DNA of 64,000 nucleotides from Candidatus Latescibacterota bacterium (lineage in GTDB: Bacteria > Latescibacterota > UBA2968 > UBA8231). A model generated the notes under the pieces. That model was given only the letters and a program-made list of their open reading frames with translations, was not told where the DNA came from and did not search any database. Below are positions 9,426 through 25,723 of this stretch, in pieces (the stretch's first letter is position 1; every line of letters starts with the position of its first letter). The translations under genes were made by a program, and so were the position numbers. The stretch lies in the NCBI GenBank assembly GCA_965242865.1, contig CBDETK010000013.1:3584001-3648000 (forward strand), in the 5' to 3' direction.

Positions 9426-11345
9426 TTAAGCATCTTCGGCCACCGGCCGGCTCTCCGCGGCAAAATGGTTGACAACGACATCAACCATTCGCTGCTGCCC
9501 CTCCACGGCAACAATCGCCACGGCCGGCAAGCCGAACGAAGCCTCCAAGCGCTCCAAGTGCGCCTTTATCTCATCCTCGCTCATTTGGCGAGAAGAAACC
9601 CAAGTTTTGCCATAGACCGAGCGAGCGTGTTTCTCCTTGTCGCTCATCGCCAGTAATATAACCGGGGCTTTGCCCAATATGCGGATGCCATCAAGGGTGT
9701 CTTGGATATACGCATCCGAATCCGTGCTGTTGACCACCAGAATGCAGGCGTCCGGTTTGGTCCCCAACAAGAAGTGGATCGACGGCTCGGTATGGGAGTT
9801 GTGGTTGGCGACATCGTAGGGTATGGTGCCCGACTGGCAGCCGACCATCATGATATCCGGTTTTTTCGCCGCGTTAATCTCGCGCATCTTGTGGTCTAGG
9901 TACGGGCCGTAGTATTGCAACGGCAGGTCTCTGGGCACGGCGTAGCCCATGGGAAAGGAAAAATCCATCCCGAACAGGGCCGAATGATGCTCCGTACCAA
10001 GCTGACCAACCTTGTATCCTTGCTCAATCAGCTTCTGCCGCAATGCGAGTTGCAAGGTGAACTTGCCCTGTTGAGAGCTCGTGCCAAACACCCCGACCAC
10101 CGGCACATCCACGGCGCGCTCGGAACCTTGGGCCGCAAGGCACCGTTGGACATCGGCAAAATCGAAATCCGGGAACTCCAAGTGCAACCCCTTGCTCCGC
10201 GCCAAGTCGTACAGGTCGGCGTAGGTCTCTAAATCAACCGCTAAGAAGCTGAACACGTTGAGCCCCCGTTCCAACGCCGTTTGTATCGCCTCGCGCAGCA
10301 AGTCCTTTTTGCCCAACCGGGATAGCTGATCTACGTACCCCAACACGAGGGTATCGGCCCCTTCGAGAGCGTCCCCGAGTTTGGGGACAATGCGCACACC
10401 TAACGGTTCGACGCCAATGGCCGCGCCAGCGTCCTTGCCCACCAAGCCTTTGCCGACCGGGTCGGCAATGCCAGCGATGGTGAAACGCAAATGCTTCGCG
10501 TGGCGCACCAGCGCATGCATTTCCTTGTTGTACGGATACAGGGCCGCCCGGCCAATCCACTCGTAGCTGGGAAAACCCGGCCGCTCGACCGTGACCGGCC
10601 CAGGATCCTCCGACTCTAAGGCGTTTGCCGCCAAAATCTCCCGCACTGGAGTCAGCCCTGCTTTGGGAAAGTGCTGGCGGATCAGGGCGACAATCGCCGA
10701 TACGTGGGGCGCGGCAAAACTGGTTCCGCCGGTGATCGTCTCCCCTCCGTTTAGCCAGCACAGACGCTGCGGATCGCCCCGGGCCACGCACTCAATGGCC
10801 TGCCCGGGTCGGTAGTAGTACCCGTAGCGGTCGTAGATTTTTCCCCAAGTGACGCCTATTACGTCGGCCAACTCGGCTGGGTAGCTCTCCAAGCCCTCGT
10901 TGTGCTGGGAACCGACCAAGATCAGATTGGCTGCAACGGCCTTGCGGCAGATCTCGGCCAAGGGCCTCTTAGACGCGGGGTCAATCGTCCCCAAGCTGAG
11001 ATTGACCACGTCCATGCCTTCTTCTATGGCCCAAGCGATGGCCGCGACCAGCGACTGTCCATCCGTAGTCAGCGACTCGTCGAAAATGCGGATCCCGTAG
11101 AGTTCGGCTTCCGGGGCTAGTTTGCGGATAATGCCGGCGCAGGCCGTACCGTGACCGGCCTGGTCGGAAAAGTCTCCCTCGCGTTGGATACCGCCGTCGG
11201 CAAGCGCACACAACCCAACTCCGCCGGCAATAGTGCCGATCTTGGGGTGATTGGGTTCAATACCGCTATCGACTACCGCGACCTTGACTCCGCGTCCGGT
11301 CAATCGGGTAAAGTCGAGCGTCTGCAACTGCTCATTGGTTCTCAT
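9426..11345 (-). CDS. S8 (subtilisin-like) peptidase fused to DUF1611-like P-loop domain
   Basis: VAVVDSG, HGTACAG and GTSFAAP catalytic triad. C-terminal VGVFGTSSQQGKFTLQL. Confidence 0.85.
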   Translation of the reverse strand: MRTNEQLQTLDFTRLTGRGVKVAVVDSGIEPNHPKIGTIAGGVGLCALADGGIQREGDFSDQAGHGTACAGIIRKLAPEAELYGIRIFDESLTTDGQSLVAAIAWAIEEGMDVVNLSLGTIDPASKRPLAEICRKAVAANLILVGSQHNEGLESYPAELADVIGVTWGKIYDRYGYYYRPGQAIECVARGDPQRLCWLNGGETITGGTSFAAPHVSAIVALIRQHFPKAGLTPVREILAANALESEDPGPVTVERPGFPSYEWIGRAALYPYNKEMHALVRHAKHLRFTIAGIADPVGKGLVGKDAGAAIGVEPLGVRIVPKLGDALEGADTLVLGYVDQLSRLGKKDLLREAIQTALERGLNVFSFLAVDLETYADLYDLARSKGLHLEFPDFDFADVQRCLAAQGSERAVDVPVVGVFGTSSQQGKFTLQLALRQKLIEQGYKVGQLGTEHHSALFGMDFSFPMGYAVPRDLPLQYYGPYLDHKMREINAAKKPDIMMVGCQSGTIPYDVANHNSHTEPSIHFLLGTKPDACILVVNSTDSDAYIQDTLDGIRILGKAPVILLAMSDKEKHARSVYGKTWVSSRQMSEDEIKAHLERLEASFGLPAVAIVAVEGQQRMVDVVVNHFAAESRPVAEDA

Positions 11346-11360: not shown

Positions 11361-13091
11361 TTAAGTATCCGCAAGCTGAGTTTTGAACAACTCCCAGTAG
11401 TGGCCTTTTTTCTCGATCAATTCGGCATGGGTGCCTTTCTCGACAATTTTTCCCTCGTCCATGCAGACGATCTCATCAACTTCTCGGATGGCACTGAGCC
11501 GGTGGCTAACGATGATGACCGTCTTGTCGTCGGCTTGGCCCTTGAGCCGGCGCAACAGCTTCTCCTCGCTCTCCGAGTCAAGGGCTGAGGTCGCCTCGTC
11601 CAGCACTACAATCTCAGGGTTTTTCAGCATCGCCCTCGCTAGTGCTATCCGCTGTTTCTGCCCACCCGACAGGTTGGCTTTAGAGTCGCATACCGTCGCC
11701 AAGGAGTCTTCGGGCGCGTGGATATCCGCGCCTTTGATCTCAAGTTCCGCCGCCGTGCGTTCAACCTCTTCTTTAGAACTATCCAACCGACCATAGCGTA
11801 TGTTTTCGAGCACCGAATCGCGAAAGAGCGGTGCTTCTTGCGACACCAAGCCGATGCGGTCCCGGTACTTGCCCAGACCAAAGGCCCTGCACGGCGCGTC
11901 GTCTATGGCGATCTCGCCTTTTTGCGGTTGGTAAAAACGACACAACAGATCGACGACCGTGCTTTTGCCGCAACCGCTCGCGCCGACGAGCGCGTACGTC
12001 TTGCCCTTTTCAATCTCTAAGTCAAAATGGCTGAGTACGGGGTGACCGTTGTAGGCAAACTCCACATCTTTGAACGCTATCTTCTCTTTGAACGAGAAGG
12101 GTTTGGCCTGCTTTGGCTCTACGTCAACCTCGGCTGGTACATCCATGAATTCCACAATCCGCCGCAGGGAAACCGACGCCCGTACGCAGTCTATGTACAG
12201 TTGGTTCAGGCTCTCTAAGGGGGCGAAGATGCGCATGAAGTACTGGAAAAAGGCGATGAGTGCCCCCAAACCGATCTCGCCCTGCATGACTTGATGCCCT
12301 CCCCAACCGAGGATGACGACAGGGGCCAAGGACATGATAAAGGACGCGATGGAACCAGCGGAAAGATTCAACGCGGTGCTGTGCATCTCCAGCTCGAACA
12401 ACTTCCCTTGTCGGCTGCCCAATTTGTCGCTCTCGTGCCTGTACGTGTTGTACGACTGGACGAGTTTGATGTTGTCGAATCGCTCAATAAAAAAACCTAG
12501 TATATCCGAAGTCGTGCGCTGGGTTGTCTCGGCCACCTTGCCTATTTTCGGCTGGAAGTACTTGAGATTCACGATGAAGCAGGGCACGAGCAGGCTCAGG
12601 CCGAGGAAGAGGGGAGCGTCCAGCCATATCAGCACCGCCCCCAAGCTGACCAGCGTCAGCACGCTGTTGACGAGCCTCAGTACGCTGGAGGTGAGCGTTT
12701 TCTGGACGACCTGCACATCGTTGTTGAGCCGATGGGCAATATCCCCGGTCTTGTTGCGTTTGAAGAAATTGAGCGGCAGGCGCAACAGGTGGCTGAACAA
12801 CTCGCTCCGCATCTCGAACACGACGCGATTGCCGACCCAGAGGTAGAGATAATTGGCGATGAAAGCACTGATGATGTTCAGGGCCATCATACCGAATAGG
12901 GTAGCCAGCAGGATGCCCAGCAGATAGTAATCTTCGTCGGGCAGCACTTCGTCAATGAGGATCATCAGGATATAGGGGAAGGCGAGTGAACTGGCTATCG
13001 CTAAAACCATGAAGACGAATACGATTGAACTTTGCCACCAGTACGGTTTGATGTACCGGGCGAAGCGCATTGCAAATTCTTTGAATACCAT
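11361..13091 (-). CDS. ABC exporter, fused permease/ATPase
   Basis: TM domain, GASGCGKST, LSGGQKQR, LDEATSALD. Confidence 0.93.
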   Translation of the reverse strand: MVFKEFAMRFARYIKPYWWQSSIVFVFMVLAIASSLAFPYILMILIDEVLPDEDYYLLGILLATLFGMMALNIISAFIANYLYLWVGNRVVFEMRSELFSHLLRLPLNFFKRNKTGDIAHRLNNDVQVVQKTLTSSVLRLVNSVLTLVSLGAVLIWLDAPLFLGLSLLVPCFIVNLKYFQPKIGKVAETTQRTTSDILGFFIERFDNIKLVQSYNTYRHESDKLGSRQGKLFELEMHSTALNLSAGSIASFIMSLAPVVILGWGGHQVMQGEIGLGALIAFFQYFMRIFAPLESLNQLYIDCVRASVSLRRIVEFMDVPAEVDVEPKQAKPFSFKEKIAFKDVEFAYNGHPVLSHFDLEIEKGKTYALVGASGCGKSTVVDLLCRFYQPQKGEIAIDDAPCRAFGLGKYRDRIGLVSQEAPLFRDSVLENIRYGRLDSSKEEVERTAAELEIKGADIHAPEDSLATVCDSKANLSGGQKQRIALARAMLKNPEIVVLDEATSALDSESEEKLLRRLKGQADDKTVIIVSHRLSAIREVDEIVCMDEGKIVEKGTHAELIEKKGHYWELFKTQLADT

Positions 13092-13118
13092 TTTGCCCTC
13101 CCTTGCGCTAGGGGCCGA

Positions 13119-13463
13119 TCAGTAGAGTAGGTGCTTGACCGAACTCAAATCGGCCTTGTTGGTGATGACATCGTAGTACTTCACGCCTTTGAAGTTGAAA
13201 GCGAGCGGCTCGACCAAGTCGAACCAAGGCTTCAACTCGTTGTAGAAGATGACCGAAAGATGCGGCTTCTCCTGCACGGGAATATGGACGTTGACGACCG
13301 TGTTGTTCTCATCAATTACAAACACGGCTGGGGTCGGTTCGCCAAAGGGCGTCTCGTTGAAGTATCCGGTCGTGTCCGACGCCACCGGAAACGCAATCTG
13401 AAAAGTCCGCACATAGTCCGAGAACTTCCGCTTGCTCATCCTCGCGATGCAGTAGATGGGCAT
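13119..13463 (-). pseudogene. C-terminal fragment of redoxin/thioredoxin-fold protein
   Basis: FPVASD...TPAVFVID pattern with no N-terminal part and no RBS. Confidence 0.45.
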
Positions 13464-13568: not shown

Positions 13569-14216
13569 TTACGAAGTGAAGTACCGATCCAGCCAGTCTC
13601 GGATACCCTGCTCCGTCGCCTCTTCGTCGTCTTGGTCGCTATAGTGCCAGTTGAGCACCTCAAAGGCGTCATCTACTACAAACCAGACCGGCACGGACGA
13701 CCGGGCGTCCGACTGGAACAGCAGGGCTTCGAGTTGCTGCTCGGCCACGAAGGTGAAGGCGAAGGGCACGATACCCACCTTGTTCTTGATGGCGATCTGC
13801 TGCTTGATGTGTTCGTTGGCGTCGCCTACGACCAACAGCAATTTGCCGTGAGAGACGCCCTGCTGCGCCATGGCCTGCTTCCACTGGTCGAGTTGGGCAA
13901 ACAGGCAGGCTCCACAGGTCCGGCTCGTCGATACAACTACGACAAAAGGCTGGCCGTCCTCGGCGGCCGACTCGTCGAACTGGGCGAAGCGGCCCAAGTC
14001 CACCGATTCGAGCAGCTTGCGGTGTAGTTTGTTCTTGAGGGCGGCGTTGACCTCGTAGTTCCACTGGACGGTTTCCAAGTGTTTTAGCCGCTCGTTGAGG
14101 GTCTCCAACTCGTCGAGTCTGTCGGTATTGTCTCGGTGCAGGGCCAAGGCGACTGAGCCGAGGCCGAGAGACAACAGTAGCAGGGCTTTGGTTAGCTGAG
14201 TGGCATTCATGGTCAT
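13569..14216 (-). CDS. Membrane-anchored thioredoxin-like protein (CxxC)
   Basis: N-terminal TM/signal, TCGAC motif, PVWFVVD. RBS AAGGAG. Confidence 0.6.
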   Translation of the reverse strand: MTMNATQLTKALLLLSLGLGSVALALHRDNTDRLDELETLNERLKHLETVQWNYEVNAALKNKLHRKLLESVDLGRFAQFDESAAEDGQPFVVVVSTSRTCGACLFAQLDQWKQAMAQQGVSHGKLLLVVGDANEHIKQQIAIKNKVGIVPFAFTFVAEQQLEALLFQSDARSSVPVWFVVDDAFEVLNWHYSDQDDEEATEQGIRDWLDRYFTS

Positions 14217-14228: not shown

Positions 14229-15404
14229 CTACTGGCCGCCCCGCGAGCGGCTGAACGCACTCTTGCCAGCTCCCGTGCGATCGTTGATTCGATAGATGGC
14301 TACGTATGGATCGCTCGTCTCGCCGGTCGCTTCGTCGAGGGCATCCTCAACCACAAAATACAGTTCCATACCGTCAACCGTCAGCAGTCTATGGCTGGCG
14401 GGTAATCTGATGCCGTCGGCAACCGAATGGCCGTCCTTGTAAAAGAGATTTAGATAGTATTCCGGCTTACCGTTAACCACACGCCGGTATTGTGTAAGCA
14501 CCAGCAGGTCGGGACCGAATTCATAGAGTCGGGAACGGACAATGTGCTCGGCAAACCATTCGTTGTGCCGAGCGGTCCAATTGACCGGATCCAAGTCGGC
14601 GGGAAAAGGCTTGATCCGGTCCCGGTGCTTAGACTGGTACTCGCTAAACCAAGTCCGTTCCAACTGGCCCTGCTCGCTGTATTGGTGGATCTCGTAGGTC
14701 GTCGGGTAGATGAAGTAGAAGCCGCCTCCCCGCTTGGGAGTGAGCACGGTGTTATGATAGCGATTCAACGCCCGTCCGGTTCGTTTGTCTTCGACCGGAT
14801 ACAGGCCGGCAACTTTATTGAGGTTGTCGTCGAAGCGGAACAGCGCGTATTGGCCTTCCGCTCGCACCCCGGCCGAGCCGGCGTCAATGACGTCCACTTG
14901 TGCGCCATAAATATGGCCACCCGTGGTGAGCACAATATGGTCAATGAACTCAGGGTTGGGATCTGGCACCTGCCGCTTGAATTTATATGAATCGCCAGAG
15001 AAGAAGAGATATTTCCTACTTTCTCCCAAGCTGTAGAAATAGAAGTCTCCGTTAGGGGCCAACCGTGGTCTTAATGGATTGAAGTATTCGTCCTCGGCTC
15101 CTCCACGCACTCCAATTTGCCGCAGGTAATGGCCCTCGGCATCGGTCTGAAAAATCATATTCTGGATACCATCTAAAACAATGAGGTTGCCCTTAGCATC
15201 AACGAAGACGTAGCTAATCTGGCCCACAATGACATGCTCAGGCATTTGCAAATGGATGTCCCGATCCTTGACGAATGCCTCGTCAAACGTAAGGTCGGCT
15301 GCCGGTGGGGTGATTTCTATCCGGCCAGCAGGCTGGTCATCACCGCATCCGACCAGAGGCACCATAGTACCGACGATTGCGATGAACTGTATCCGATTTT
15401 TCAT
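14229..15404 (-). CDS. 6-bladed beta-propeller lipoprotein
   Basis: LVGC lipobox. GHYLRQIGVRGGAEDEY resembles the G-x-G-P-x-E-Y motif of this family. Confidence 0.7.
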   Translation of the reverse strand: MKNRIQFIAIVGTMVPLVGCGDDQPAGRIEITPPAADLTFDEAFVKDRDIHLQMPEHVIVGQISYVFVDAKGNLIVLDGIQNMIFQTDAEGHYLRQIGVRGGAEDEYFNPLRPRLAPNGDFYFYSLGESRKYLFFSGDSYKFKRQVPDPNPEFIDHIVLTTGGHIYGAQVDVIDAGSAGVRAEGQYALFRFDDNLNKVAGLYPVEDKRTGRALNRYHNTVLTPKRGGGFYFIYPTTYEIHQYSEQGQLERTWFSEYQSKHRDRIKPFPADLDPVNWTARHNEWFAEHIVRSRLYEFGPDLLVLTQYRRVVNGKPEYYLNLFYKDGHSVADGIRLPASHRLLTVDGMELYFVVEDALDEATGETSDPYVAIYRINDRTGAGKSAFSRSRGGQ

Positions 15405-15476
15405 AACATTTTCCTTGTGGATGGTTGGTGTTGAGCCACTATGTATTCATAAGGCTCAGTACCCGAAGATTCAGAG

Positions 15477-15512
15477 GAGTGGACCGGGGATCACTTTGAC
15501 CCCGGTCCACTC
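15477..15512. terminator. Strong hairpin downstream of peptide cassette 1
   Basis: GAGTGGACCGGGG / CCCCGGTCCACTC perfect arms. Near-identical copy at 20217-20248. Confidence 0.65.
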
Positions 15513-15598
15513 GCTCGTCAACGGCTCGGTGGTTGTTTAGCTACCCCTCCAGTGGCGATTCTATCGAATCAAGCAGGGCGGAAGGGCCTGCTGACTGA

Positions 15599-15742
15599 CT
15601 AGCCGCAGCAGCAGCAGAGGCGGCCCTCTCCAGAGCAATCAGCTTTCGGAGGACTGCTTTCGCAGATGGAGAGGGCGAATTCCAGCTGCGCCTCGACGGC
15701 CTGGCCGTAGGTGGCGCGTTGGGGTTTGTGCAGAGCGATCAT
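15599..15742 (-). CDS. Cys-rich RiPP-like precursor peptide (47 aa)
   Basis: RBS AAGGAG then MIALHKPQRATYGQAVEAQLEFALSICESSPPKADCSGEGRLCCCCG. Confidence 0.7.
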   Translation of the reverse strand: MIALHKPQRATYGQAVEAQLEFALSICESSPPKADCSGEGRLCCCCG

Positions 15743-15938
15743 GATTATGCTCCTTGAGTAAGTGAATGGTTCTATTGAACCAAAGGGGGACGCCAAGGGC
15801 GTCGCGAAAGGGCCTCCTTATGAGAACCCTTGATAGGGCTGATACAGGCAGCGTCATGTTACGAGAAGGAACGGCAGATGCCTGCGTGGCTTCAATGGCC
15901 GAGCCGTAGCTTGTATTTACGGATGGATGCAGGGACAT
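15639..15938 (-). CDS. Precursor-like ORF sharing the leader motif (probably degenerate at the 3' end)
   Basis: RBS GAGGAGG then MSLHPSVNTSYGSAIEATQ. The 3' part overlaps the next peptide out of frame. Confidence 0.4.
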   Translation of the reverse strand: MSLHPSVNTSYGSAIEATQASAVPSRNMTLPVSALSRVLIRRPFRDALGVPLWFNRTIHLLKEHNHDRSAQTPTRHLRPGRRGAAGIRPLHLRKQSSES

Positions 15939-15971
15939 GGCTTCAGACCTCCTCGACTGTGAACGCTAGCT

Positions 15972-16052
15972 TTACCAGCGCGCCCCGAAAAAGGGCCACT
16001 GCACAGACCGCCGAAAGCGGCGGCGGTAACGGCGGTTGATAACGCGGTTCAT
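15972..16052 (-). CDS. Short Arg-rich ORF (26 aa), first after the sigma54 promoter
   Basis: RBS GAGGAGG then MNRVINRRYRRRFRRSVQWPFFGARW. Confidence 0.35.
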   Translation of the reverse strand: MNRVINRRYRRRFRRSVQWPFFGARW

Positions 16053-16149
16053 TGTTCCCTCCTCTTATGGGGTGGATGGAAAGCCTGCCCGTCGGCCCCT
16101 ATTCCTTAGTGGCCAACAACAGCTTGCTTTCGTGTTCACTTACTATATA

Positions 16150-16165
16150 AGCATATTCCGTGCCA
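16150..16165 (-). promoter_or_regulatory. Sigma54 -24/-12 promoter (module 1)
   Basis: TGGCACGGAATATGCT with GG-N10-GC spacing. Confidence 0.8.
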
Positions 16166-16256
16166 AACTGATTCTTGATAAAAGATAAACTACTAATAAA
16201 CATATACTTATAAAAAATTAAGGCACTTCATGCCAAACGCTGAATCGCGCTTCAAT

Positions 16257-16344
16257 TGCACCCTTTCGACGCACCTAACCCCCCATTTGCTCTCTATTTC
16301 TATTTTTTACAACAGTTTAGAGCAAGTGCGTTAAAAAGGACGCA
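16257..16344. promoter_or_regulatory. Putative bEBP enhancer sites (module 1)
   Basis: TGCACCCTTTCGACGCA and TGCGTTAAAAAGGACGCA start 70 bp apart. Same arrangement in module 2. Confidence 0.65.
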
Positions 16345-16603
16345 GTGCGTCAAGGTCGACTTGGTCCACGACGAGTAGCGGAGTTAGAAACCAATCCTTT
16401 TTTAATGCGCTAACACCCATTCTCGCCTACTGCGTTCTGGCCGAGGCGTCCCCCTTAGTGTGCGTCTAAGACGGGAGGAGAATGGGGAGTGGAGGAATTG
16501 AAATTGAAACCGGACAACTTTACAGGTGAATGGACCGGACTGCGGATCTGGGCCTTAGAGCCTCTTTTCGTCCTCGCAATTTACGAGGTGGAGTAGCACC
16601 CTT

Positions 16604-17644
16604 TTATCTTAGAGATGAGAGATGCGAAAGCACCTCACCCAAGAGCGCGAACTCATCCTTTCTCAGGCGGCATAGTTCATCTTGGGCAAACGTTCGACCT
16701 TCCTTGGCCTTTTTGCCTCTCATCTGGTTTCTCAACACAACCATGCGGATCTGATTTGCGCGGCTGGCGATATCCGAGTATCTCCGGGCAAAACCGACCT
16801 CTTCGGGCAGGATCCCTTGGCCCTCCATGTACTCCAGCCGAGCGACCATGCACTTTTTGTGCTCCCAGAAAATACGCAAGGAGATAAGCAGCTCGTCCTC
16901 GGTCGCCTCCGGCTCATCAAGCAGCCCTGCGAGGAACTGGTAAGTATCCATCCCCCACAGGTCGCCGCGGTTTCTCGGTTCGGCGAGTATCCGCAACCGC
17001 GTTGAGGTGTTGCGAGACAGGTAGAGGTCGGTCAATTCCTCCCGGGCCTGCACTAAGTCAAAAGCACACTCAGCAGACGACCGGTAGTAGTAGAGCACAA
17101 CTTGAGGATTCTCAACCTTGTCCTGTAGCCAATCAGGGCCACCCTCCGGCCTAAACGCCGTGGATAACGCCCGCTCAAACTCGGCGAACCCCACGGCGAA
17201 ACGGCCGTAGCTCCCATCGCGGCCGTAGCCCGACGCAGTAAAAGTGCCTTGTCGCCAGTCAAAGCCGCTCAAAAGCAGTTCGTGAAGAAAATGAACCCGT
17301 TGGTAATACACGCCCTGTGGAATGTAAAAGTAGTCCACATCCAACTGCACGTAGTAATCCCTTTCGAGGCACTCCAAGACGAATTTTGTGACTTCATCCG
17401 GCTTGTCCCCGGCCAGTCGCCGGTCAACCCTATTGGATTCGAGCAAAGGGCAGGTGGAGAACTCTCGATAAAACGGATGGAGGTAGAAATTCAGCCCCCG
17501 TCCCTCAAACTGTCGCAACTGGATATAGTGACAATAGAACCACGGCCGGTACGCTGTGTCGCGGGCGAGGATCGAAAGCGGGTATAGATGGTGCATATAC
17601 CCGGTGATGGGCGGTTTGCCGATGGGCAAACACTTTTTCGTCAC
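16604..17644 (-). CDS. Hypothetical protein, possible BtrH-N/C39-like fold
   Basis: DYFYIP...HFLHELLLSGFD His/Asp motif. Translationally coupled to the glycosyltransferase. Confidence 0.5.
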   Translation of the reverse strand: MTKKCLPIGKPPITGYMHHLYPLSILARDTAYRPWFYCHYIQLRQFEGRGLNFYLHPFYREFSTCPLLESNRVDRRLAGDKPDEVTKFVLECLERDYYVQLDVDYFYIPQGVYYQRVHFLHELLLSGFDWRQGTFTASGYGRDGSYGRFAVGFAEFERALSTAFRPEGGPDWLQDKVENPQVVLYYYRSSAECAFDLVQAREELTDLYLSRNTSTRLRILAEPRNRGDLWGMDTYQFLAGLLDEPEATEDELLISLRIFWEHKKCMVARLEYMEGQGILPEEVGFARRYSDIASRANQIRMVVLRNQMRGKKAKEGRTFAQDELCRLRKDEFALLGEVLSHLSSLR

Positions 17645-18900
17645 GACGCGATCCTCGCTTTCGCGTCCGTGGTTCCTTGGAGGAGACGCATTAGCCGCCG
17701 TGCGGAAGCAGACCAGCTAAATCGAGGTCGATCCGGGGGGATTTGGGGCGGAAAACCAACCGTATAGGCTTGAGCCAATAGCCTCACCAGCGAATCAGCA
17801 TCGTCGAGTCCGTAATACCGCCCCTGCTTGCCTACCACCTCGTTCATTATCGGAATGTCGGGAACAATGACTTCCGTCCCGCAGGCCAACGCCTCCACCG
17901 CTGGCAGGCAAAAGCCCTCATCTACCGACGAGATCACCAGTGCTGCGGCACTGTGGTATAGAGCAGCCAGTTCGTCGTCGTCAACCCGACCGAGGAACCG
18001 GACTTGCTCCCCCAAGGCATTGGCTGCGACGGACCGTTCCAATTCGCTTTGGTACGCCCCGTAATCCCCCACCATCACCAACGGAGGACACAGCCCCCGC
18101 TCGGCCTTGAGCTCGGCCAACACCGAAAAGAGCCAGTCCAACCTTTTGCGCTTGTGTGCTAGCCCTACAAAGAGGAAGAACGGGGATTTTAGGCCGTGCT
18201 GGACCAGTACTCGGGCGATGGTTTCGCCATCCCGCTGGCCGCTGAAAATGCGCTCGTCAGCCGCCCCCGACACCACATCAATCTTCTCGTTGGAGATGCC
18301 GAGTATCTGTACAATGTCTTGCTTGACCGTATTGGAAACAGTGATCACCCCTTCGCATTGGGTCGCTAAACGTCTGTTCATAGCCCAGAAATAGTGGTGG
18401 AACACTTCTTTGCCTTCGGGCACATCCCCAAATCCAACTGTGTTGTGTCCAAGACGCTCACACGCCATCCTCATTTGCTCAAACTCCGACCGGCCGAATT
18501 TGGCTTGGAACGCCGCATCCGTATAGGTCGATAGATCGGGGTGCTTGAGCCGGATTAGGTCGTGGATAGTGAATATGTAGGGAACGGGCAGCAACGGATC
18601 AACGATATAATGGATTGAGTAGTACAAATTGACCCCTTCCCGGATAAGCCAATTCCGCAACCACGACGAATCGCGCACAAATCCACCGTCGTCCGGCACT
18701 TCCACGAAGCGGAGCCGACGAGTCAAACGCGGATTTTTCAGATCGGCTGCGATTTCACCACTGCGTCCCGGCCAAGCGATCACGGTCAGGCGGTAATCTC
18801 CATCGATTTCGTCGGCATCCAGCGCGTGCAACAGGGAAGTGCCATAGCGATAGATGCCGCTATAGTGGGTCGTGCGTAGGTCAAAGGCTAAATGGGTCAT
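17641..18900 (-). CDS. Glycosyltransferase family 4
   Basis: FTIHDLI, VITVSNTVKQDI, EGFCLPAVEALACG. Confidence 0.9.
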   Translation of the reverse strand: MTHLAFDLRTTHYSGIYRYGTSLLHALDADEIDGDYRLTVIAWPGRSGEIAADLKNPRLTRRLRFVEVPDDGGFVRDSSWLRNWLIREGVNLYYSIHYIVDPLLPVPYIFTIHDLIRLKHPDLSTYTDAAFQAKFGRSEFEQMRMACERLGHNTVGFGDVPEGKEVFHHYFWAMNRRLATQCEGVITVSNTVKQDIVQILGISNEKIDVVSGAADERIFSGQRDGETIARVLVQHGLKSPFFLFVGLAHKRKRLDWLFSVLAELKAERGLCPPLVMVGDYGAYQSELERSVAANALGEQVRFLGRVDDDELAALYHSAAALVISSVDEGFCLPAVEALACGTEVIVPDIPIMNEVVGKQGRYYGLDDADSLVRLLAQAYTVGFPPQIPPDRPRFSWSASARRLMRLLQGTTDAKARIAS

Positions 18901-18954
18901 GGTATCTCACTCCTTAGCAACGGGAATAGGGAAGCCTAGCAAGTTCTCATGTTG

Positions 18955-19392
18955 TTAGCGGTCGGCTGGAATTTCCCGCTCCTTCTGCACCAACAGCGTT
19001 GCAGCACCCCCAGCCAACAACAAACCGCGCAACAGTGCCCAACCCAGCGAAGCACCCTCGTCGCCACCAAAACAACCGCACGTCACCTCGTTGCCGCGGT
19101 ACATATTGATGCCGAGCGCCGCACTAAAAACCACCAGTAGCCCCAAGATGACCAAGGCGTTACTGCGCGACCAGATGCCCAAGAGCAGAAGGCCGCCGGC
19201 AATCAGTTCAACCCAGACGACCGACAGCGCAAACGGCGCAGCCCAATCCACCGGGAGCATATCAAAGGCCGCGACCGTCTCGACGAAAGACGGTATTTGC
19301 ACGAGCTTTGCACTCCCCGCCCAAACAAAGACACCGCCCAACACCAGCCGGACCGTCAGAGCCAGATAGGGCCTGAGTGCAAGTCTGTCCAT
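18955..19392 (-). CDS. MauE/DoxX family redox membrane protein
   Basis: RLVLGGVFVWAGSAK, ELIAGGLLLLG, TCGCFG. ATG overlaps the rhodanese stop. Confidence 0.85.
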   Translation of the reverse strand: MDRLALRPYLALTVRLVLGGVFVWAGSAKLVQIPSFVETVAAFDMLPVDWAAPFALSVVWVELIAGGLLLLGIWSRSNALVILGLLVVFSAALGINMYRGNEVTCGCFGGDEGASLGWALLRGLLLAGGAATLLVQKEREIPADR

Positions 19393-19868
19393 TAGAAAGG
19401 ACCCTCCGATTCCACGGGATAACCCGCTTCTTCCCATTGGGGAAATCCGCCCGCGAAGACGTAGATCTGCGTAAAATCCATCTCCGTTGCGAGCTTTTGC
19501 GCCAGTTTGGAGCCCAAGTTACACGTCGTCCCTGAACAGTAAACGACCAGCGCGGTATCCTTGGACAAGTCGGCCAATTCCGCGCCAAAAGCGGCGAGAA
19601 TCTCCGACGGTGGGACATTAAGAGCCCCGGGCACATGCCCCAACTGGTAGGGCCAAGAAGACCGAGCGTCCACGAACACAGCCGCCCTTTGGTCCAAGAG
19701 CCGTTTGGCCGTTGCTAAATCAATCAGATGCACACCATTTTCGGGCCGCTGGACCTCTTCTATTGCCAAGCTATGCAGTCCGCCGCTGGAGACGCCGATC
19801 GCCACTACCAGCAATGCCTTTCCAACAATTCGCTTCATCACAGCGAATCCCCTTTCTCCGGTAGTCAA
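19392..19868 (-). CDS. Rhodanese-like protein with N-terminal signal/TM
   Basis: FVDAR, GHVPGALN, VVYCSGTTC, FAGGFPQW. Confidence 0.85.
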   Translation of the reverse strand: MTTGERGFAVMKRIVGKALLVVAIGVSSGGLHSLAIEEVQRPENGVHLIDLATAKRLLDQRAAVFVDARSSWPYQLGHVPGALNVPPSEILAAFGAELADLSKDTALVVYCSGTTCNLGSKLAQKLATEMDFTQIYVFAGGFPQWEEAGYPVESEGPF

Positions 19869-20137
19869 ACCCCTATTGGCGGTACTTTGCCGCGCACGAA
19901 TTCGGCGATGGAACGCACCGACACAAACCGTTCCGCCCGCAGTTCCTCGTCTTCCACATCAATGGCAAAGTGCGTTTCCAAGGCCATGACGAGCTGTAGC
20001 ATGACTATTGAATCAGCCCCCAGACCATCACCCAACAGCAACTCGTCGTCCGCGATAGCCTCCGGTTCGATCTCCAGTTCAAGAGCTTGGACGATAACCT
20101 GTTTGATCTGTGCTTCGAGTTTCATCTCGATGTCCAT
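19865..20137 (-). CDS. Acyl carrier protein
   Basis: Acidic 90 aa protein with LGADSI phosphopantetheine motif. Confidence 0.85.
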   Translation of the reverse strand: MDIEMKLEAQIKQVIVQALELEIEPEAIADDELLLGDGLGADSIVMLQLVMALETHFAIDVEDEELRAERFVSVRSIAEFVRGKVPPIGV

Positions 20138-20216
20138 GATCGCCTATTCTTCCGTTTGCGGCGCACGAAACATGCTTCGTGAGGGCATGCTTTAGAAATA
20201 CCCGAAGATCAGCGGA

Positions 20217-20248
20217 GTGGACCGGGGATCACTTTGACCCCGGTCCAC
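20217..20248. terminator. Hairpin downstream of peptide cassette 2
   Basis: GTGGACCGGGG / CCCCGGTCCAC, duplicate of 15477-15512. Confidence 0.65.
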
Positions 20249-20269
20249 GCGCTCATCAACGGCTCCGTT

Positions 20270-20375
20270 CTACCGAACTAAGTCGTGCCAGCAAGACCGA
20301 CAAGGAACGATGGCGCCCTACGTGTCAACACAGGCCGGACCGTAGCTTGTATTTACGGATTGGATGCAGAATCAT
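20270..20375 (-). pseudogene. Degenerate precursor paralog
   Basis: Near-identical to the 5' end of the 15938 ORF. Removing one base gives MILHPSVNTSYGPACVDT*GAIVPCRSC (frameshift plus TAG). Confidence 0.55.
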
Positions 20376-20409
20376 GGCTTCAGACCTCCTCTACCTTGGC
20401 TACCCAGGG

Positions 20410-20475
20410 CTAGGCCAGCGGGGACTGTTCGTCGAGCCGACGATACCTGATTTCGGCTAAGGGGTGCAGAGTCAT
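20410..20475 (-). CDS. Short leader-motif ORF (21 aa)
   Basis: RBS GAGGAGG then MTLHPLAEIRYRRLDEQSPLA. Confidence 0.4.
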   Translation of the reverse strand: MTLHPLAEIRYRRLDEQSPLA

Positions 20476-20565
20476 GGCGGACCTCCTCTTTATAGGGTGG
20501 ATGGAAAGCCGGCCCTTCAGCAGGTGCGGCCAAACGGCTTGCTTTCGCGCTCACCTATACACCAT

Positions 20566-20581
20566 AGCACATTCCGTGCCA
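20566..20581 (-). promoter_or_regulatory. Sigma54 -24/-12 promoter (module 2)
   Basis: TGGCACGGAATGTGCT with GG-N10-GC spacing. Confidence 0.8.
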
Positions 20582-20670
20582 AACGGAGCCGCAAAGCCGT
20601 AATTGATTGTTATACAAAGGGTTATAGAAAATGGGGGCCTTTCGTCCAAGTCGCCGAGTCGCGCTTCCAT

Positions 20671-20758
20671 TGCACCCTTTTGACGCACCTAACGACCTGT
20701 TTTATTTGTATCTCACGTCTTTACAATGGCTTAGAGCAAGTGCGTCAAAAGAGCCGCA
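20671..20758. promoter_or_regulatory. Putative bEBP enhancer sites (module 2)
   Basis: TGCACCCTTTTGACGCA and TGCGTCAAAAGAGCCGCA start 70 bp apart. Confidence 0.65.
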
Positions 20759-20845
20759 GTGCGCTAAAAGTGACCGCGGGGGCCGTTGCGTGAGTTGCTC
20801 TCAATCGTTACGCTCAGGTTTATCCTTCGTTTGAGGAGTCGCGCC

Positions 20846-22582
20846 ATGCTTGGATCCTACCCCCGCATTCCCTACGGTTGGGCCGATTTCCGGGCCATCC
20901 GCTTGGAAAAGCGTCTCTACGTGGATAAGACGCGCTTTGTCCACGCCTTGGAAGAGGAGCGCTACGTCTTTTTCATTCGGCCGCGTCGCTTTGGCAAGTC
21001 CTGCTGGGTGTCCCTGCTGGCCAACTACTACGACCGCACCCGCGCCGACGACTTTGATGCCGTCTTCGGCGGCACGGACCTCGGCAATAATCCCACCGCC
21101 AACCGCCATCGCTACGTCGTCCTGCGCTTCAACTTTTCGACGTTCAAAAACGCCTTGGAAACCCTCGAACACTACTTTGGAGAGTATTGTCAACTGGTGG
21201 TTCGGCACGCGCTGGAGCGCAACCGAGATTTGTTTCCCGAGGCGGCACGGCGGCACATTCGCTCGTCGAGTTCGGTCAATGGCCAGCTCAACGAGCTATT
21301 CTTGTACGCCGGCGATCACGGCATTCGGCTGTACGTGCTCATTGACGAGTACGACAACTTTGCCAACACGGTGCTGGCGCACCACGGCGAGGCGGCCTAT
21401 CAGTCGTTCACGCACGGCGGCGGCTTCTACCGCAACTTTTTTGCCACGCTCAAGGGCGGCACGGAACAAAGTCGCGGCGGCTTGGAGCGGCTGTTCATCA
21501 CCGGGGTGTCGCCGATTACCATGGACGACGTCACCAGCGGCTTCAACATCGGCCGCAACATCAGCCTGCGGCCGGAGTTCAACGACCTGCTCGGCTTCAC
21601 CGAGGAGGAGGTGCGAAGCCTGCTGGAGCTGTACCTCGACCACGGCGTGTTCAATCAGGATGTCGAAGGCGCGCTGGCGGTGATGCGCGAGTGGTACAAC
21701 GGCTATCGGTTCGCCAAGAGTGCCCAAGGCGACCTCTACAACACCGACATGGTGCTCTATTTCCTCGCTGAATCCATTCCGAACAAACCCATGCCGGACG
21801 AATTGATCGACACCAATGTCCGCATCGACTACGGCAAGTTGCGCCACTTGCTGACGGTCAACCGCCAACTCAACGGCAACTTCGACCTGCTACGCCACAT
21901 CATCGGCGAGCAACAGGTAGATACCCCCCTCCAACTCAGCTTCCCCCTCGACCGACTCGACCGGCGCGAAAACTTCCTGTCCCTGCTGCATTACTTCGGT
22001 CTGCTCAGCATTCGGGGGGTGTCGCAGGGGGTGCCGCGGTTAGGCATTCCCAACCAAACGGTCAAGCGGCTGATGTACGGCTACCTGCGCGATGGATACG
22101 ATGATGTGGGGGTGTTTTCCGTCGATGGGTACACCTTCTCCCGCTTGGTGCGCGAGATGGCCTACGAAGGAGCTTGGCGACCGGTATTGGACTTTCTGCG
22201 CGACGCCCTCGCCGAACAAACCGGCATCCGCGACTACATGGACGGCGAAAAGGTCATCCACGGCTTTGTCGCCGCGCACTTGAGCATGGTCGCTCAGTTT
22301 CTGCTCCACTCCGAGTACGAACTGAACAAGGGCTATGCGGACCTGTACTTGGAGCCGTTCCTCGCCCGATACCCCGATATGCGGTTCGGCTATGTGCTCG
22401 AACTCAAGTATGTGAAACGAAGCGATCCCCTCGGCGAATCCGTCGCCGCGGCCAAGGTGCAGGAAGCCGTGCTTCAGTTGCGCGGCTACTTGGCGGACCC
22501 GTCCCTGCGCCGCGGCCACCCGGCGGTGCGGCACATTGGCTTGGCGGCGGTGTTTCACGGCTGGGAGTTGGTTGCCTACTAA
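20846..22582 (+). CDS. AAA-ATPase-like protein with PD-(D/E)XK nuclease domain
   Basis: YVDKT, RPRRFGKS, LIDEYD, WYNGYRF, GYADL...ELKY. Confidence 0.9.
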   Translation: MLGSYPRIPYGWADFRAIRLEKRLYVDKTRFVHALEEERYVFFIRPRRFGKSCWVSLLANYYDRTRADDFDAVFGGTDLGNNPTANRHRYVVLRFNFSTFKNALETLEHYFGEYCQLVVRHALERNRDLFPEAARRHIRSSSSVNGQLNELFLYAGDHGIRLYVLIDEYDNFANTVLAHHGEAAYQSFTHGGGFYRNFFATLKGGTEQSRGGLERLFITGVSPITMDDVTSGFNIGRNISLRPEFNDLLGFTEEEVRSLLELYLDHGVFNQDVEGALAVMREWYNGYRFAKSAQGDLYNTDMVLYFLAESIPNKPMPDELIDTNVRIDYGKLRHLLTVNRQLNGNFDLLRHIIGEQQVDTPLQLSFPLDRLDRRENFLSLLHYFGLLSIRGVSQGVPRLGIPNQTVKRLMYGYLRDGYDDVGVFSVDGYTFSRLVREMAYEGAWRPVLDFLRDALAEQTGIRDYMDGEKVIHGFVAAHLSMVAQFLLHSEYELNKGYADLYLEPFLARYPDMRFGYVLELKYVKRSDPLGESVAAAKVQEAVLQLRGYLADPSLRRGHPAVRHIGLAAVFHGWELVAY

Positions 22583-22950: not shown

Positions 22951-24228
22951 TCAATTTGAGGGCGGGATTTGCTTGCCCTGCGGGTCTTGCTCGTCGCTGA
23001 TTTGCGCGCCCAACTCGGCGGCCAGCTCGCCGCCAATAAAGTGTTCAATCGCGTCGGCCGGGGCGTGGACGTGGTCTTTGGGGAGGCCCAACTGGCTCAT
23101 ATAGGTCTCCCAAAGCCGGTGATTGCGCAGCAGGCGCAGCGCGGCTTGTTGGCCCTTGGCAGACAAGCCGACGAGGCCATTGGCCTCGCTCAGCAGGTGC
23201 CGCCGCCGCAGGTTGCCAACCGCCAGCCGCGCCAGCAGGCCCCAAACAGCCGCGACCGCCACGAGCTCGGCCGGCCGCAGCCCCGCGCGCTCAGCCCCGC
23301 TTTCCTCGCGTCGCACCAAGGCGAGCAGTATGTGGTCTTGCGCCACTTGCAGGGATAGCCGCACGCGCTGGTAGATCCGCGCCAGCACGCCCTGATTGGG
23401 CGAAAAAAGCAGGGAAAAGACAAAGACCGCGCCGATGACCACCACCATGGCCCCGGCGATGGAGCTATTCCACAGGCTGGCCAAAAAGTAGCCCGCCACC
23501 GCCGAGACCACGCCAAAGAACGCGGCCAACCCCAGCACCGCGATGAGCCGGTCGCTCCACAGGTACGCGGCAGCCCCGGGCACGATCAGCATGGCCACGA
23601 CTAAGATCGCGCCGACCGCCTCAAACGACGCCACCGTCGTCAGGGCGACCAACCCCATCAAGAGATAGTGCATCAGGGTGGCGTTGATCCCCACCGACAT
23701 GGCCATGGCCGGATCAAACGCGGAAATTTTGAATTCCTTGTACAAAAGCGCGACCACCGTCAGATTGATCGCGAGCACCGCGCCCAATATCCACACCGGG
23801 CGCGGCCCCAGCGACGTATCGCCCCACAGCAGCAGGTCCCAAGGGGTATAGGCGATTTCGCCGTAGAGCACGCACTCCTGATCGAGATCGACTTGGCCGG
23901 CATACGCGGTAATGATCACCACGCCCAGCGCGAACAGCGCGGTAAACACAATGCCGATGGCCGCGTCCTCCTGCACGCGCCACCGCCGGTGAAACGCCTC
24001 GACCAACAGCGCGGTCACCAAGCCTAAGACGGCCGCGCCCAAAAACATCGGCAGCACCGCCCGGCTGCCCGACAGCAGGAAGGCCACGGCGATCCCGGGC
24101 AGCACCGAGTGGCTCAACGCGTCGCCCAACAGTGCCATCTTGCGCAGCACCAAGAAGGTGCCCAACAAGCCACAAGACGCGGTGACCAACGCGCCAGTGA
24201 GCACGATCCAGAAAGCCCCTTCGCTCAT
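22951..24228 (-). CDS. Mn/Zn ABC permease with C-terminal DtxR-like domain
   Basis: GDALSHSVLPG. C-terminal RNHRLWETY...ADAIEH...DPQGKQIP. Confidence 0.9.
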   Translation of the reverse strand: MSEGAFWIVLTGALVTASCGLLGTFLVLRKMALLGDALSHSVLPGIAVAFLLSGSRAVLPMFLGAAVLGLVTALLVEAFHRRWRVQEDAAIGIVFTALFALGVVIITAYAGQVDLDQECVLYGEIAYTPWDLLLWGDTSLGPRPVWILGAVLAINLTVVALLYKEFKISAFDPAMAMSVGINATLMHYLLMGLVALTTVASFEAVGAILVVAMLIVPGAAAYLWSDRLIAVLGLAAFFGVVSAVAGYFLASLWNSSIAGAMVVVIGAVFVFSLLFSPNQGVLARIYQRVRLSLQVAQDHILLALVRREESGAERAGLRPAELVAVAAVWGLLARLAVGNLRRRHLLSEANGLVGLSAKGQQAALRLLRNHRLWETYMSQLGLPKDHVHAPADAIEHFIGGELAAELGAQISDEQDPQGKQIPPSN

Positions 24229-24419
24229 TCGCCCCCCCCCGGCGGCAGTGGCTCCATCCCCGTACCCGTGGGGGCGTCCCCCTGTGGACGCCCTCCCTTC
24301 CCTCGCTCATTCGCCCCCCCCCGGCAGTAATGGCTCCATCCCCGTACCCGTGGGGGCGTCCCCCTGTGGACGCCCTCCCTTCCCTCGCTCATTCGCGCCC
24401 TCCCCGGCGGTAGTGGCTG
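24221..24419. repeat. 82-bp tandem repeat (2 full copies + partial) containing a REP-like hairpin
   Basis: TCGCTCATTC recurs at 24221, 24303 and 24385. Each full unit holds GTGGGGGCGTCCCCCTGTGGACGCCC. Confidence 0.9.
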
Positions 24420-25723
24420 CCGGTGCCGTGGATATTGACGATCCGGGCCGGGTCCAACCCTTGCTCGCGCTTGAGGATGTCCTCTAGCTCGGCAATGATT
24501 TCCGGCGTCAGCAAGTGCTCCACCTCGTCGGCCGGCCGATCCACGTGATCCGCGTCGAGTATATCCCGATAATACAAGTAGTGTTCCCACAAGCGGTGCG
24601 ATTTAACCACGAACAGCCCTTCCTCCGCGCCGGTGGCCGTTAGGACGAAACGCCCGTCTCGGGGCGCGACCAGCCCCTTTTCGGCGAGCTGCCGCCCGAG
24701 GCGTTTGACCCGGTCGGGCGACAGGCCCATCTCAATGGCCAGTTCCTCCACGGCCCAGGGGCGGCTCGTTCTTAGCTTCTCTTGCAGCTCGACGCAGGCG
24801 CGCAAAAAGTGCTGCTGGCTCTCGCGGCGGCTGTTGTGCCGCTGCCGCCGCCACCGCGCCAACACCCCGCGCCGGGGCGCGAAAAGAGCCGAAACCACAA
24901 AGCACCAAGTGGCGATGAGCACCATCACCGGGCCGGTGGGAACCCGCGGCACCAAGGAGCTGATGAAGGTGCCGACCACGCCAGCCAACCCCCCGAACGC
25001 AGCCGCGAGCAGGACCATCTCGTGCAACCGCTCGGTCCAAAAGCGCGCTGCCACGGCCGGCGTGATGAGCATGGCCGCAATCAGCACCACGCCGACGGCC
25101 TGCAAGCCGACGATCACCGTCAGGGCAATAAGCCCCATGAGCAGGGCGTCGATCCAGCGGGATGAGTACCCGAGTGTCTGCAAGAAGTCCGCGTCGAAAA
25201 TCAGGGCCTTGAACTCCTTAAAAAACAGGGCCACTGCGAGGAGGATGAGGACCGCCAGTGCGCTCATGACGCGCAGGTCGTCTTCTACCAGCGAGGCCGC
25301 TTGCCCAAAGAGGAATTTGTCCAAGCCGCTCTGATTGCCCGTGCCGACCCGCTGAACGTGGGTCAACAGCACGATGCCCACGCCAAAAAACACGGACAGG
25401 ACAATGCCGATGGCTGAATCGGCCTTGACGCGGGTAAAGTTGATGATGAACTGCATCACCAACACCCCGAGCACCCCGGAAATCGCCGCGCCCGCCAGCA
25501 GCACCGGCAGGGCCTTGCTCCCAGTCCACAAGTAGGCCAACGCCACGCCCGGCAGGGCCGCGTGCGCCAGCGCGTCGCCGACGAGGCTCCGCCGCCGCAA
25601 CACGGCAAACGACCCCAGCAACCCGCCAGTCGCGCCGATCAGCAGGGCGCCGAAGAGCACGAAGCGCACGTTGGCGTCGGCCAAGCTCAAAAAGCGCAGG
25701 GCGTTTTCGGCGATCACGGTCAA
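24389..25723 (-). CDS. Mn/Zn ABC permease with C-terminal DtxR-like domain
   Basis: [18 protein letters not shown]...ADEVEH. TTG start overlaps the ATPase stop. Confidence 0.88.

Follow-up and report, generated by a model that had tools for sequence, protein, structure and literature searches.

Several small open reading frames (ORFs) with a similar leader-like N terminus lie in a 64,000-nucleotide stretch of DNA from a Candidatus Latescibacterota bacterium (contig CBDETK010000013.1, positions 3,584,001 to 3,648,000). Does any of them encode the precursor of a ribosomally made peptide product, and if so, which neighbouring genes would act on it? We refer to the whole of this stretch as the window and number its positions from the first letter. 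One ORF, sORF C (15599..15742, minus strand), is in our assessment the probable precursor of a secreted, leader-cleaved, cysteine-rich peptide, and from sequence evidence it is the only convincing gene among the window copies. Its family has the character of precursors of ribosomally synthesized and post-translationally modified peptides (RiPPs) and is, by its pattern and partners, a variant of a catalogued, chemically unsolved system.

A fixed leader on a variable cysteine scaffold

The sORF C frame starts at an ATG at 15742, which has the ribosome-binding site (RBS) AAGGAG 7 nt upstream, and stops at 15599. It encodes the 47-residue peptide MIALHKPQRATYGQAVEAQLEFALSICESSPPKADCSGEGRLCCCCG, in which a leader of roughly residues 1–21 is followed by a core of about 26 residues that carries C27, C36, G40 and C44–C45 as well as two extra Cys residues. 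We aligned this peptide with 14 relatives (n = 15: the window copy, two sequences from the related locus L001, one from locus L003, and 11 unnamed database proteins of 43–48 residues recovered by profile search; one further member, P0155, was left out). The leader of these C-type sequences, MIALHKPQRATYGQAVEAQ, is nearly invariant over 19–21 residues. Across all 15 sequences M1, A3, L4, H5, K6, R9, Y12, Q14, V16, A18, Q19, E21, C27, C36, G40, C44 and C45 do not change, and mean pairwise identity over the 105 pairs is 0.93 in the leader (columns 1–19) versus 0.37 in the remainder. The core scaffold C-x6-8-C-x3-4-G-x3-CC is fixed and the rest of the core is hypervariable. At the gene level, the reading frame, start, stop and four Cys codons are kept in the 14 relatives while the intervening core varies. 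The C-type genes with known context (two in L001 and one in L003) occur in the same cassette as in the window, beside fusion proteins of an S8 protease with DUF1611 that are 90–91% identical to the window's.

A fixed leader joined to a freely varying core on a Cys scaffold is the pattern that RiPP precursors and diversifying secreted peptides present. The elements of the first part of the general RiPP precursor definition, namely a conserved leader, a variable core, and an adjoining protease and exporter, are all found at this locus. A preliminary description of the DNA had proposed a conserved leader with variable cores typical of RiPP precursors; the 15 C-type sequences bear this out, although the 'variable cores' that it saw in the window itself belong to apparently degenerate paralogues (see below). 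It had also called the family new. The peptides indeed match no model in Pfam or NCBIfam, but the kind of leader resembles by eye that of the CLI_3235 family as printed in PMC10731318, so that newness would hold for the family and not for its kind.

An exhaustive profile search of 1.84 billion representative proteins returned 31 matches at E ≤ 1e-3, two of which span only about 20 residues, and 6 at E ≤ 1e-10. The precursor family is either rare or rarely called as a gene. A protein-embedding search with the sORF C peptide gave scores that were all below 0.9 and provide a lead at most.

The alignment also bears on the suggestion, made in the preliminary description, that the Cys run binds metal. 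The peptide would then be a metallophore or metal buffer using that run, in keeping with the CCCCG end of the window copy, a weak match of the cluster's MauE/DoxX protein to the HvfX Cu-binding RiPP maturation family (23.1 bits, cut-off 80), NikA-like matches of its SBP_bac_5 protein, and Zn/Mn-type uptake genes 3–10 kb away. The CCCC run is not conserved, which argues against metal binding: two separate Cys residues (C27 and C36) and the terminal CC are the only invariant ones, and the Cys count is exactly four in 12 of the 15 members. Among His, Met, Asp and Glu, no ligand is conserved in the core, and the metal genes lie on other transcription units and are missing from related loci. We consider a metal-binding role most improbable.

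The leader type recurs beside S8–DUF1611 genes

The S8 protease–DUF1611 fusion of the window (9426..11345, minus strand; 639 aa; Peptidase_S8 2.5e-25) has an invariant catalytic triad, D26, H65 and S209. With the S8 domain beginning about 10 residues ahead of the Asp block, a signal or propeptide cannot be accommodated. Its best named S8 relatives are QhpE (1.3e-40) and subtilisins, and the DUF1611 part matches TIGR04066 (1.6e-35, under its curated cut-off), the N-acetyltransferase DgcN (1.6e-8) and PDB entry 2g0t. A protein search with the fusion yielded 603 relatives among 8000 candidates scored, and DUF1611 is fused to an S8 protease in every relative listed. Scanning species-representative genomes gave 124 confirmed places, from which 78 loci were kept; these are mostly from Latescibacterota, with some from Gemmatimonadota and a few from KSB1, Melioribacteraceae, Bacteroidetes and Rosettibacter. 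Several genomes encode two to six copies. The fusion protein of the window shares 90–91% identity with those of L001–L003.

The preliminary description had proposed searching for the leader near S8–DUF1611 homologues, and this search was productive. The pattern M-x1-4-L-x-K...[VILM]-x-[AGT]-[YQCF] with an RBS was found in 46 of 79 sources (54 matches), always on the strand of the S8–DUF1611 gene, compared with 5 matches in 5 sources in the reversed-sequence control; at least four of the matches are false by eye (L002, L010, L029:9705 and L056). An iterated leader profile recovered 28 ORFs from 26 sources, and clustering of the small RBS-preceded ORFs in the loci revealed further Cys peptides with a similar N terminus. 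The leader type spans Latescibacterota, Gemmatimonadota and a few Bacteroidota- or Ignavibacteriota-like records.

The broader leader type can be written M-x-x-L-x-K-[PKR]...[VIL]-x-A-[YQ] or L-x-K-P-x-R...[VIL]-x-A-[YQ], and the LH-x6-Y-G-x-A-[VI]-E-A motif of the window is one sub-type of it. Several sub-types contain the string LHKPQR; the L027 leader MKITLHKPQREAANAVLAY is an example. The shorter element LH-x6-Y is common by itself, with 233 six-frame matches in 1.50 Mb (the window plus the fetched loci). In the same 1.50 Mb, the complete motif LH-x5-7-Y-[GAS]-x-[AS]-[VIL]-[ED] has only 6 matches, every one inside a C- or B-type ORF in the window, L001 or L003, and each copy begins 2–3 codons past an RBS-preceded ATG. 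The genome OZ247580.1 holds two systems (L001 and L013) with different leader sub-types, a hint that leader and fusion protease are matched within each system.

The cargos behind the leader differ widely. They comprise peptides of 40–85 residues with 3–6 Cys, Gly/Ala-rich proteins of 120–140 residues, and some without Cys. At L017 959–1360, L022 4498–4914, L012 6453–6836, L049 6826–7203 and others, the leader heads Gly/Ala-rich or acidic proteins of 120–140 residues that have no Cys scaffold; such cargos usually adjoin CPBP/Rce1-like membrane proteases or TPR proteins, not propellers. In L077, from Bacteroidetes, the leader-like MKPLKKPIKLLNYG... precedes a Cys-rich 137-residue ORF, a putative precursor. 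Besides the S8–DUF1611 fusion and an acyl carrier protein (ACP), the segment 6417–13135 of that locus encodes a CcpM/PapB-like radical SAM enzyme and an ANT(6)-like nucleotidyltransferase (12269–13135).

A duplicated cassette with probably degenerate copies

All small ORFs of the precursor cassettes are on the minus strand of the window and are housed in two copies of one cassette (~15471–16349 and ~20209–20763). The DNA of the duplicated cassette is 70–90% identical. The small-ORF copies are thus not independent events but are carried by the duplicated cassette. Each copy runs from upstream blocks through a sigma-54-type promoter, sORF A and sORF B to a 13-bp stem-loop, with sORF C preceding the stem-loop in copy 1 only.

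The four peptides of the preliminary description, together with their RBSs, the frameshift and the TAG codon, are all where it had placed them; a fifth member, sORF A, had escaped it. sORF B (15639..15938, minus strand) has an ATG at 15938 behind the RBS GAGGAGG and begins with the leader-like MSLHPSVNTSYGSAIEA. Its frame runs on without a stop for 99 aa, as far as 15639, overlapping sORF C in a different frame, and the read-through product contains no Cys. Compared with L003 and the first L001 copy (L001_a), about 30 codons of B are conserved, with a Ser codon replaced (TCC/AGC) and a 12-nt indel that keeps the frame; in its 3' part the frame differs between genomes. Its counterpart in cassette copy 2, the sORF B' relic (20318..20375, minus strand), has an ATG at 20375 and reads MILHP, after which one extra A shifts the frame by +1 into SVNTSYGPACVDT and a TAG. 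The leader frame is broken in two of five B copies (B' of the window and L001_b). sORF A' (20410..20475, minus strand), MTLHPLAEIRYRRLDEQSPLA, is preceded by the RBS GAGGAGG and has counterparts in L001–L004 and L065, among which conservation is limited to about 11 N-terminal residues. sORF A (15972..16052, minus strand) encodes an Arg-rich peptide of 26 aa, MNRVINRRYRRRF...; it aligns codon for codon with A', its original ATG is lost and its start codon displaced, and its counterpart in L003 has 29 aa. Of the motif, A and A' retain no more than M-x-LHP...IRY, where they have not lost it altogether.

We read A, A', B and B' as decaying paralogues retained in the duplicated 5' region. B in particular is probably a degenerate paralogue. 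Alternatively, the four may be upstream ORFs or decoys. The earlier judgement that only the 47-residue copy looks intact agrees with the broken frame of B' and the apparent degeneracy of the others.

More generally, the small ORFs might not be genes at all. The conserved DNA would then be the regulatory 5' region of sigma-54 operons (promoter, enhancer, RNA structure and upstream ORFs), and the leader motif a by-product of duplication. The location of A, A', B and B' inside a duplicated cassette of such high DNA identity is in line with this, as are the frame-broken B copies, the conservation of A and A' over about 11 residues only, and the conserved hairpin and promoter that flank the small ORFs. 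This explanation fails for sORF C, whose 14 relatives preserve frame, start, stop and the four Cys codons around a varying core. It is also at odds with the recurrence of the leader type on unrelated DNA in 46 of 79 sources, and with the Ser codon replacement and in-frame indel in B. That none of the small ORFs is a gene is, in our judgement, highly unlikely, and we continue with sORF C as a precursor gene.

Promoters and hairpins of the cassettes

Both cassette copies carry a sigma-54-type promoter on the minus strand: TGGCACGGAATATGC in copy 1 (16151..16165), with the form GG-N10-GC, and TGGCACGGAATGTGC in copy 2 (20567..20581). The motif TGGCACGGAAT[A/G]TGC has these 2 matches in the window versus 0.02 expected, and the same element is found 5' of the cassettes in L001–L004 and L065. 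By sequence, the sites show the −24 GG and −12 GC elements at 10-nt spacing, and an activator gene is nearby (Sigma54_activat 3.4e-69 at 4116–5516). A further possible sigma-54 site 5' of sORF C, TTGGCGTCCCCCTTTGG, was rejected as its spacing is off by one. Scans for sigma-70 promoters and intrinsic terminators gave no signal above background level. The upstream block of copy 1 (16197..16349, minus strand; repeat family D1) is 74% identical to 20611–20763; such blocks are kept in 9 cassettes and are a candidate enhancer for the sigma-54 activator.

Each copy is closed by a stem-loop on the minus strand, at 15477..15512 in copy 1 (13-bp stem) and at 20215..20250 in copy 2; folds of the stretches holding them have z-scores of −4.7 and −5.7, respectively. 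Across six hairpins at the ends of cassettes (window, L001, L002 and L003), 94.9% of cells are paired, compared with 28–50% in slid controls, and compensatory changes occur at 2 pairs (5 cells) in what is a small sample of related sequences. Because there is no U-tract 3' of the hairpin, it is more likely to be a stabilizer or partial terminator than a canonical terminator. We rejected the idea that it is a genome-wide repetitive element of the REP-like kind, there being 2 copies in 64 kb and none in 76 of 78 loci. Rfam gave no match in 15300–20900 at E ≤ 1. Just 5' of sORF C, the DNA at 15780–15830 (minus strand) is conserved in L001 and L003; it contains an AAGGAGG without a usable start and a small GACGCC-CTT-GGCGTC hairpin, and folds weakly better than shuffled sequences (z −2.1).

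Genes encoded with the precursor

The following genes of the cluster are all on the minus strand. The ACP (19865..20137) contains the DS motif and matches PP-binding at 1.8e-8 (34.9 bits versus a cut-off of 20.8); homologues of it are found in 66 of 78 sources, and homologues of the ABC exporter in 61 of 78. The exporter itself (11361..13091; 576 aa) consists of ABC_membrane and ABC_tran domains and has no C39 peptidase domain. Pfam and NCBIfam identify a GT4 glycosyltransferase (17641..18900). The segment 4116..9306 encodes an SBP_bac_5 binding protein, a Cache/HAMP histidine kinase and an NtrC-type sigma-54 response regulator, again according to Pfam and NCBIfam.

The protein that we call U346 (16604..17644; 346 aa) has no Pfam match and no PDB match by sequence. 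Profile and structure comparison predict it to be a papain-fold transacylase of the BtrH/CcbD/CtaG kind. The slot after the ACP is filled either by the U346 family (28 loci) or by a BtrH_N/DUF4872/Peptidase_C39_2 family (18 loci), and no locus has both. Aligned with hhalign, the two families match with 73.6% probability (E 2.9e-5, 218 columns), and language-model features group U346 with BtrH_N clusters at 0.98. The structure predicted for U346 (pLDDT 73) matches AziU3, CtaG and CcbD in Foldseek with a probability of 1.0 and a TM-score of about 0.5. The same structure search found PDB entries 9dks and 9dkr, in which CcbD is crystallized with a carrier domain.

A group of thiol-redox genes is also present. 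It comprises a MauE/DoxX membrane redox protein (18955..19437; MauE 4.5e-29), a rhodanese with a signal-like N terminus (19392..19868; from translation and Pfam) and U215 (13569..14216), which is membrane-anchored and carries a CGAC (CxxC) motif read from its translation. U215 has no Pfam, NCBIfam or PDB match and is probably thioredoxin-like. U114 (13119..13463; 114 aa; Redoxin/ResA-like) is a truncated redoxin remnant that is 93% identical to residues 125–238 of a 238-residue membrane-anchored redoxin, L003:7512–8228. Cys-type loci likewise hold MauE, rhodanese, the CxxC protein and the redoxin family.

Directly 3' of the precursor is a six-bladed NHL-like propeller lipoprotein (14229..15404; lipobox LVGC). 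A fold search returned NHL-type propellers and an uncharacterized Bacteroides protein, from which no function is assignable. A propeller gene lies within 600 nt of 22 of 30 short Cys-type precursors, a set that includes two probable false matches. Among 22 long precursors a propeller is within 600 nt downstream of 1 and upstream of 0; CPBP or TPR genes adjoin them instead. Across the loci, HlyD occurs in 44, CPBP/Rce1-like proteins in 23 and propellers in a subset.

The window is rearranged relative to L003 and L001. In the window an AAA-ATPase/PD-(D/E)XK gene and the A' cassette lie 5' of the ACP operon (20150–22582), whereas in L003 (5255–7500) they sit between the CxxC protein and the redoxin. 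Recombination between repeated cassettes is a likely cause of this change in gene order.

This set of genes bears on whether the peptide is modified. It could instead be secreted without modification other than disulfide bonds, in the manner of class II bacteriocins or pheromones, with a leader serving only cleavage and export, and the ACP, DUF1611, BtrH-like and GT4 proteins acting on a lipid, a sugar or something else. No radical SAM enzyme or other known core-modifying RiPP enzyme was found in the window, Radical_SAM having no match among the 45 window ORFs scanned. The conserved scaffold consists of four Cys residues, the cluster encodes MauE, the CxxC protein, the redoxin remnant and rhodanese, and the same leader heads long Gly/Ala-rich cargos without a Cys scaffold that are paired with putative immunity proteins of the CPBP type. 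All of this would suit an unmodified peptide. Set against it are the ACP homologue that accompanies S8–DUF1611 in 66 of 78 sources, the BtrH-like protein in a fixed slot in 46 loci, and the physical fusion of DUF1611 to the leader protease in every relative listed, with which a role of these proteins apart from the peptide is hard to reconcile. We regard an unmodified product as unlikely, and favour a leader-cleaved peptide on which the conserved partners would act.

Relation to described systems

In the nearest system described so far, the firmicute CLI_3235/CcpM cassette, a Cys-rich precursor is encoded together with a radical SAM enzyme, TIGR04066, an ACP-related protein, a subtilase and an ABC transporter (PMC10731318 and PMC4573289). 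The window system is alike in outline: its precursor is Cys-rich and has a short leader at the N terminus, and a DUF1611/TIGR04066-like protein, an ACP, an S8 protease (subtilase) and an ABC exporter accompany it. Five distant loci of the L077 type with the same fusion and leader type keep a CcpM/PapB-like radical SAM enzyme. The leader of SacP23, MRKLVKRSTNVGDTIEAF, as printed in PMC10731318, has L4, K6, G13, [VI]16, E17 and A18 in common with MIALHKPQRATYGQAVEAQ, as compared by eye. SacP23 is an expressed CLI_3235-type product whose mature N terminus is blocked to Edman degradation according to the same paper. Such a block would fit N-terminal acylation without showing it.

The differences are also considerable. 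The window has no radical SAM enzyme CcpM (TIGR04068), its S8 and DUF1611 parts are fused, and its TIGR04066 and TIGR04069 scores fall short of the cut-offs. Beyond the cassette, it has genes for BtrH-like, GT4, propeller and thiol-redox proteins as well as sigma-54 control. None of 69 peptides, scanned in sets of 4, 10 and 55, matched the TIGR04065 precursor model (E ≤ 10), and two profile searches for named CLI_3235 proteins gave no named match (23 matches among 49 candidates and 17 among 91). From the failure on the precursor model, the radical SAM enzyme and the ACP-related model, the window system is a distinct variant of this cassette.

Other systems share single features. The best NCBIfam match of the S8 domain is QhpE, from quinohemoprotein amine dehydrogenase maturation (139.1 bits, below the cut-off of 165). 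In that pathway QhpE works in the cytoplasm, cleaving the leader from a small Cys-rich subunit. Unlike the Qhp system, the window has no QhpD radical SAM enzyme or dehydrogenase subunits, and the core is hypervariable. U346 resembles the papain-fold ligases BtrH, CcbD and CtaG in fold and profile and is encoded alongside an ACP; CtaG is reportedly a papain-like ligase working with carrier proteins in amide-bond formation (PMC12865890). The known members of this group, however, serve non-ribosomal small-molecule pathways, and the putative nucleophile of U346 reads Ser. MauE and MauD act in disulfide maturation of the methylamine dehydrogenase small subunit. As in that system, a MauE-family protein stands beside thioredoxin-like proteins and a Cys-rich peptide here, but methylamine dehydrogenase genes are not present.

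The near-invariant leader, the diversifying core, the multiple precursors per locus (two in L001) and the dedicated ABC exporter recall prochlorosins, cyanobactins and double-glycine-leader bacteriocins. The window system differs from the first two in having neither LanM nor PatA/PatG, and from the third in that its leader has no GG and its ABC protein no C39 peptidase domain. The class-defining enzymes of sacti-, ranthi- and lanthipeptides were not found in the window. A literature search joining DUF1611 with RiPPs found no paper, with the proviso that surveys of Latescibacterota biosynthetic clusters may list such clusters under generic labels; a search on DUF1611 alone returned unrelated papers only.

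A proposed pathway

We propose that the cluster's NtrC-type regulator drives both cassettes, and that the cytoplasmic S8 domain of the fusion would recognize the leader and cut near the A-Q/A-Y junction. DUF1611, the ACP and the BtrH/CtaG-like papain-fold ligase may form a carrier-protein-dependent acyl-transfer module, as their folds and gene neighbourhood suggest. This module would attach an acyl or aminoacyl group to an amine of the core, possibly the new N terminus, and GT4 may add a sugar. The ABC transporter would export the peptide, after which the periplasmic thiol-redox set (MauE, the CxxC protein U215 and rhodanese) could form two disulfides from the four conserved Cys residues by oxidation. 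The propeller lipoprotein next to the precursor is a candidate cognate partner in immunity or folding. The product would most likely be a bacteriocin-like or signalling peptide.

A bolder version, which we offer as a tentative possibility, is that these loci define a RiPP class in which a protease-fused DUF1611, an ACP and a papain-fold ligase graft a carrier-borne acyl or aminoacyl group onto a ribosomal peptide, giving a thiotemplated–ribosomal hybrid without a radical SAM enzyme. The leader would then be a universal tag for unrelated cargo classes, each with its partner: a propeller lipoprotein for Cys knots and CPBP for Gly/Ala-rich proteins.

Several observations weigh against our main explanation, a processed and modified peptide. 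RiPP precursor models matched none of the 69 scanned peptides, and among the window ORFs of at least 110 aa there is no Pfam or NCBIfam match to radical SAM/SPASM or to LanB, LanC, LanM, LanKC or LanL. The DUF1611 part scores 122.8 bits over 364 residues against TIGR04066, for which the cut-off is 200, and the window ACP scores 19.2 bits against TIGR04069, for which it is 70. U346 seems, as read from the consensus, to carry Ser and not Cys at the BtrH-like nucleophile position. The redox set includes a truncated gene, U114, from which the first 124 codons are missing along with the promoter cassette that precedes the gene in L001–L004. A codon comparison of four leaders is uninformative (1–5 synonymous versus 1–5 non-synonymous differences). 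Lastly, sORF B retains some marks of coding constraint, so that it is at most a probable relic.

Surroundings in the window

Outside the cluster, the region 22951–31184 contains two adjoining genes (22951–24228 and 24389–26644) that each encode an ABC-3 permease fused to an iron-dependent-repressor C-terminal domain; they adjoin a ZnuA-type binding protein and a TonB-dependent receptor. Genes of the DNA-modification or defence-island type occupy 37854–46095 on the plus strand: a class-V aminotransferase (cysteine desulfurase-like), a PAPS-reductase-domain protein, GmrSD, an SNF2 helicase, a ParB_N protein and two ORFs without matches. At 46178–49306 (minus strand) there is a 1042-residue propeller of the pyrroloquinoline quinone-dependent dehydrogenase kind with C-terminal ankyrin repeats.

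A second peptide-type cluster, the make-up of which recalls lasso-peptide loci, lies at 52383–63463 on the minus strand. It encodes an asparagine-synthase-like protein (61013–62974), a transglutaminase-like protein (63023–63463), two ABC ATPase/permease genes, a PRMT-like methyltransferase (56044–57003), an AhpC/deiodinase-like protein (59811–60464) and two ORFs without matches.

Implications

To our knowledge, the Latescibacterota have no cultured, chemically studied members, and we know of no peptide natural products from them. The present finding defines an unannotated precursor family with a recognizable leader and a fixed four-Cys scaffold on which the core varies freely. It also defines a conserved enzyme set, S8–DUF1611, ACP and a BtrH-like ligase, with chemistry that has yet to be solved, even for the firmicute CLI_3235 cassettes already catalogued. 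For mining, the leader motif provides a handle, as it marks small ORFs overlooked by gene callers and by the present family libraries, and a defined substrate makes the function of DUF1611/TIGR04066 directly testable.

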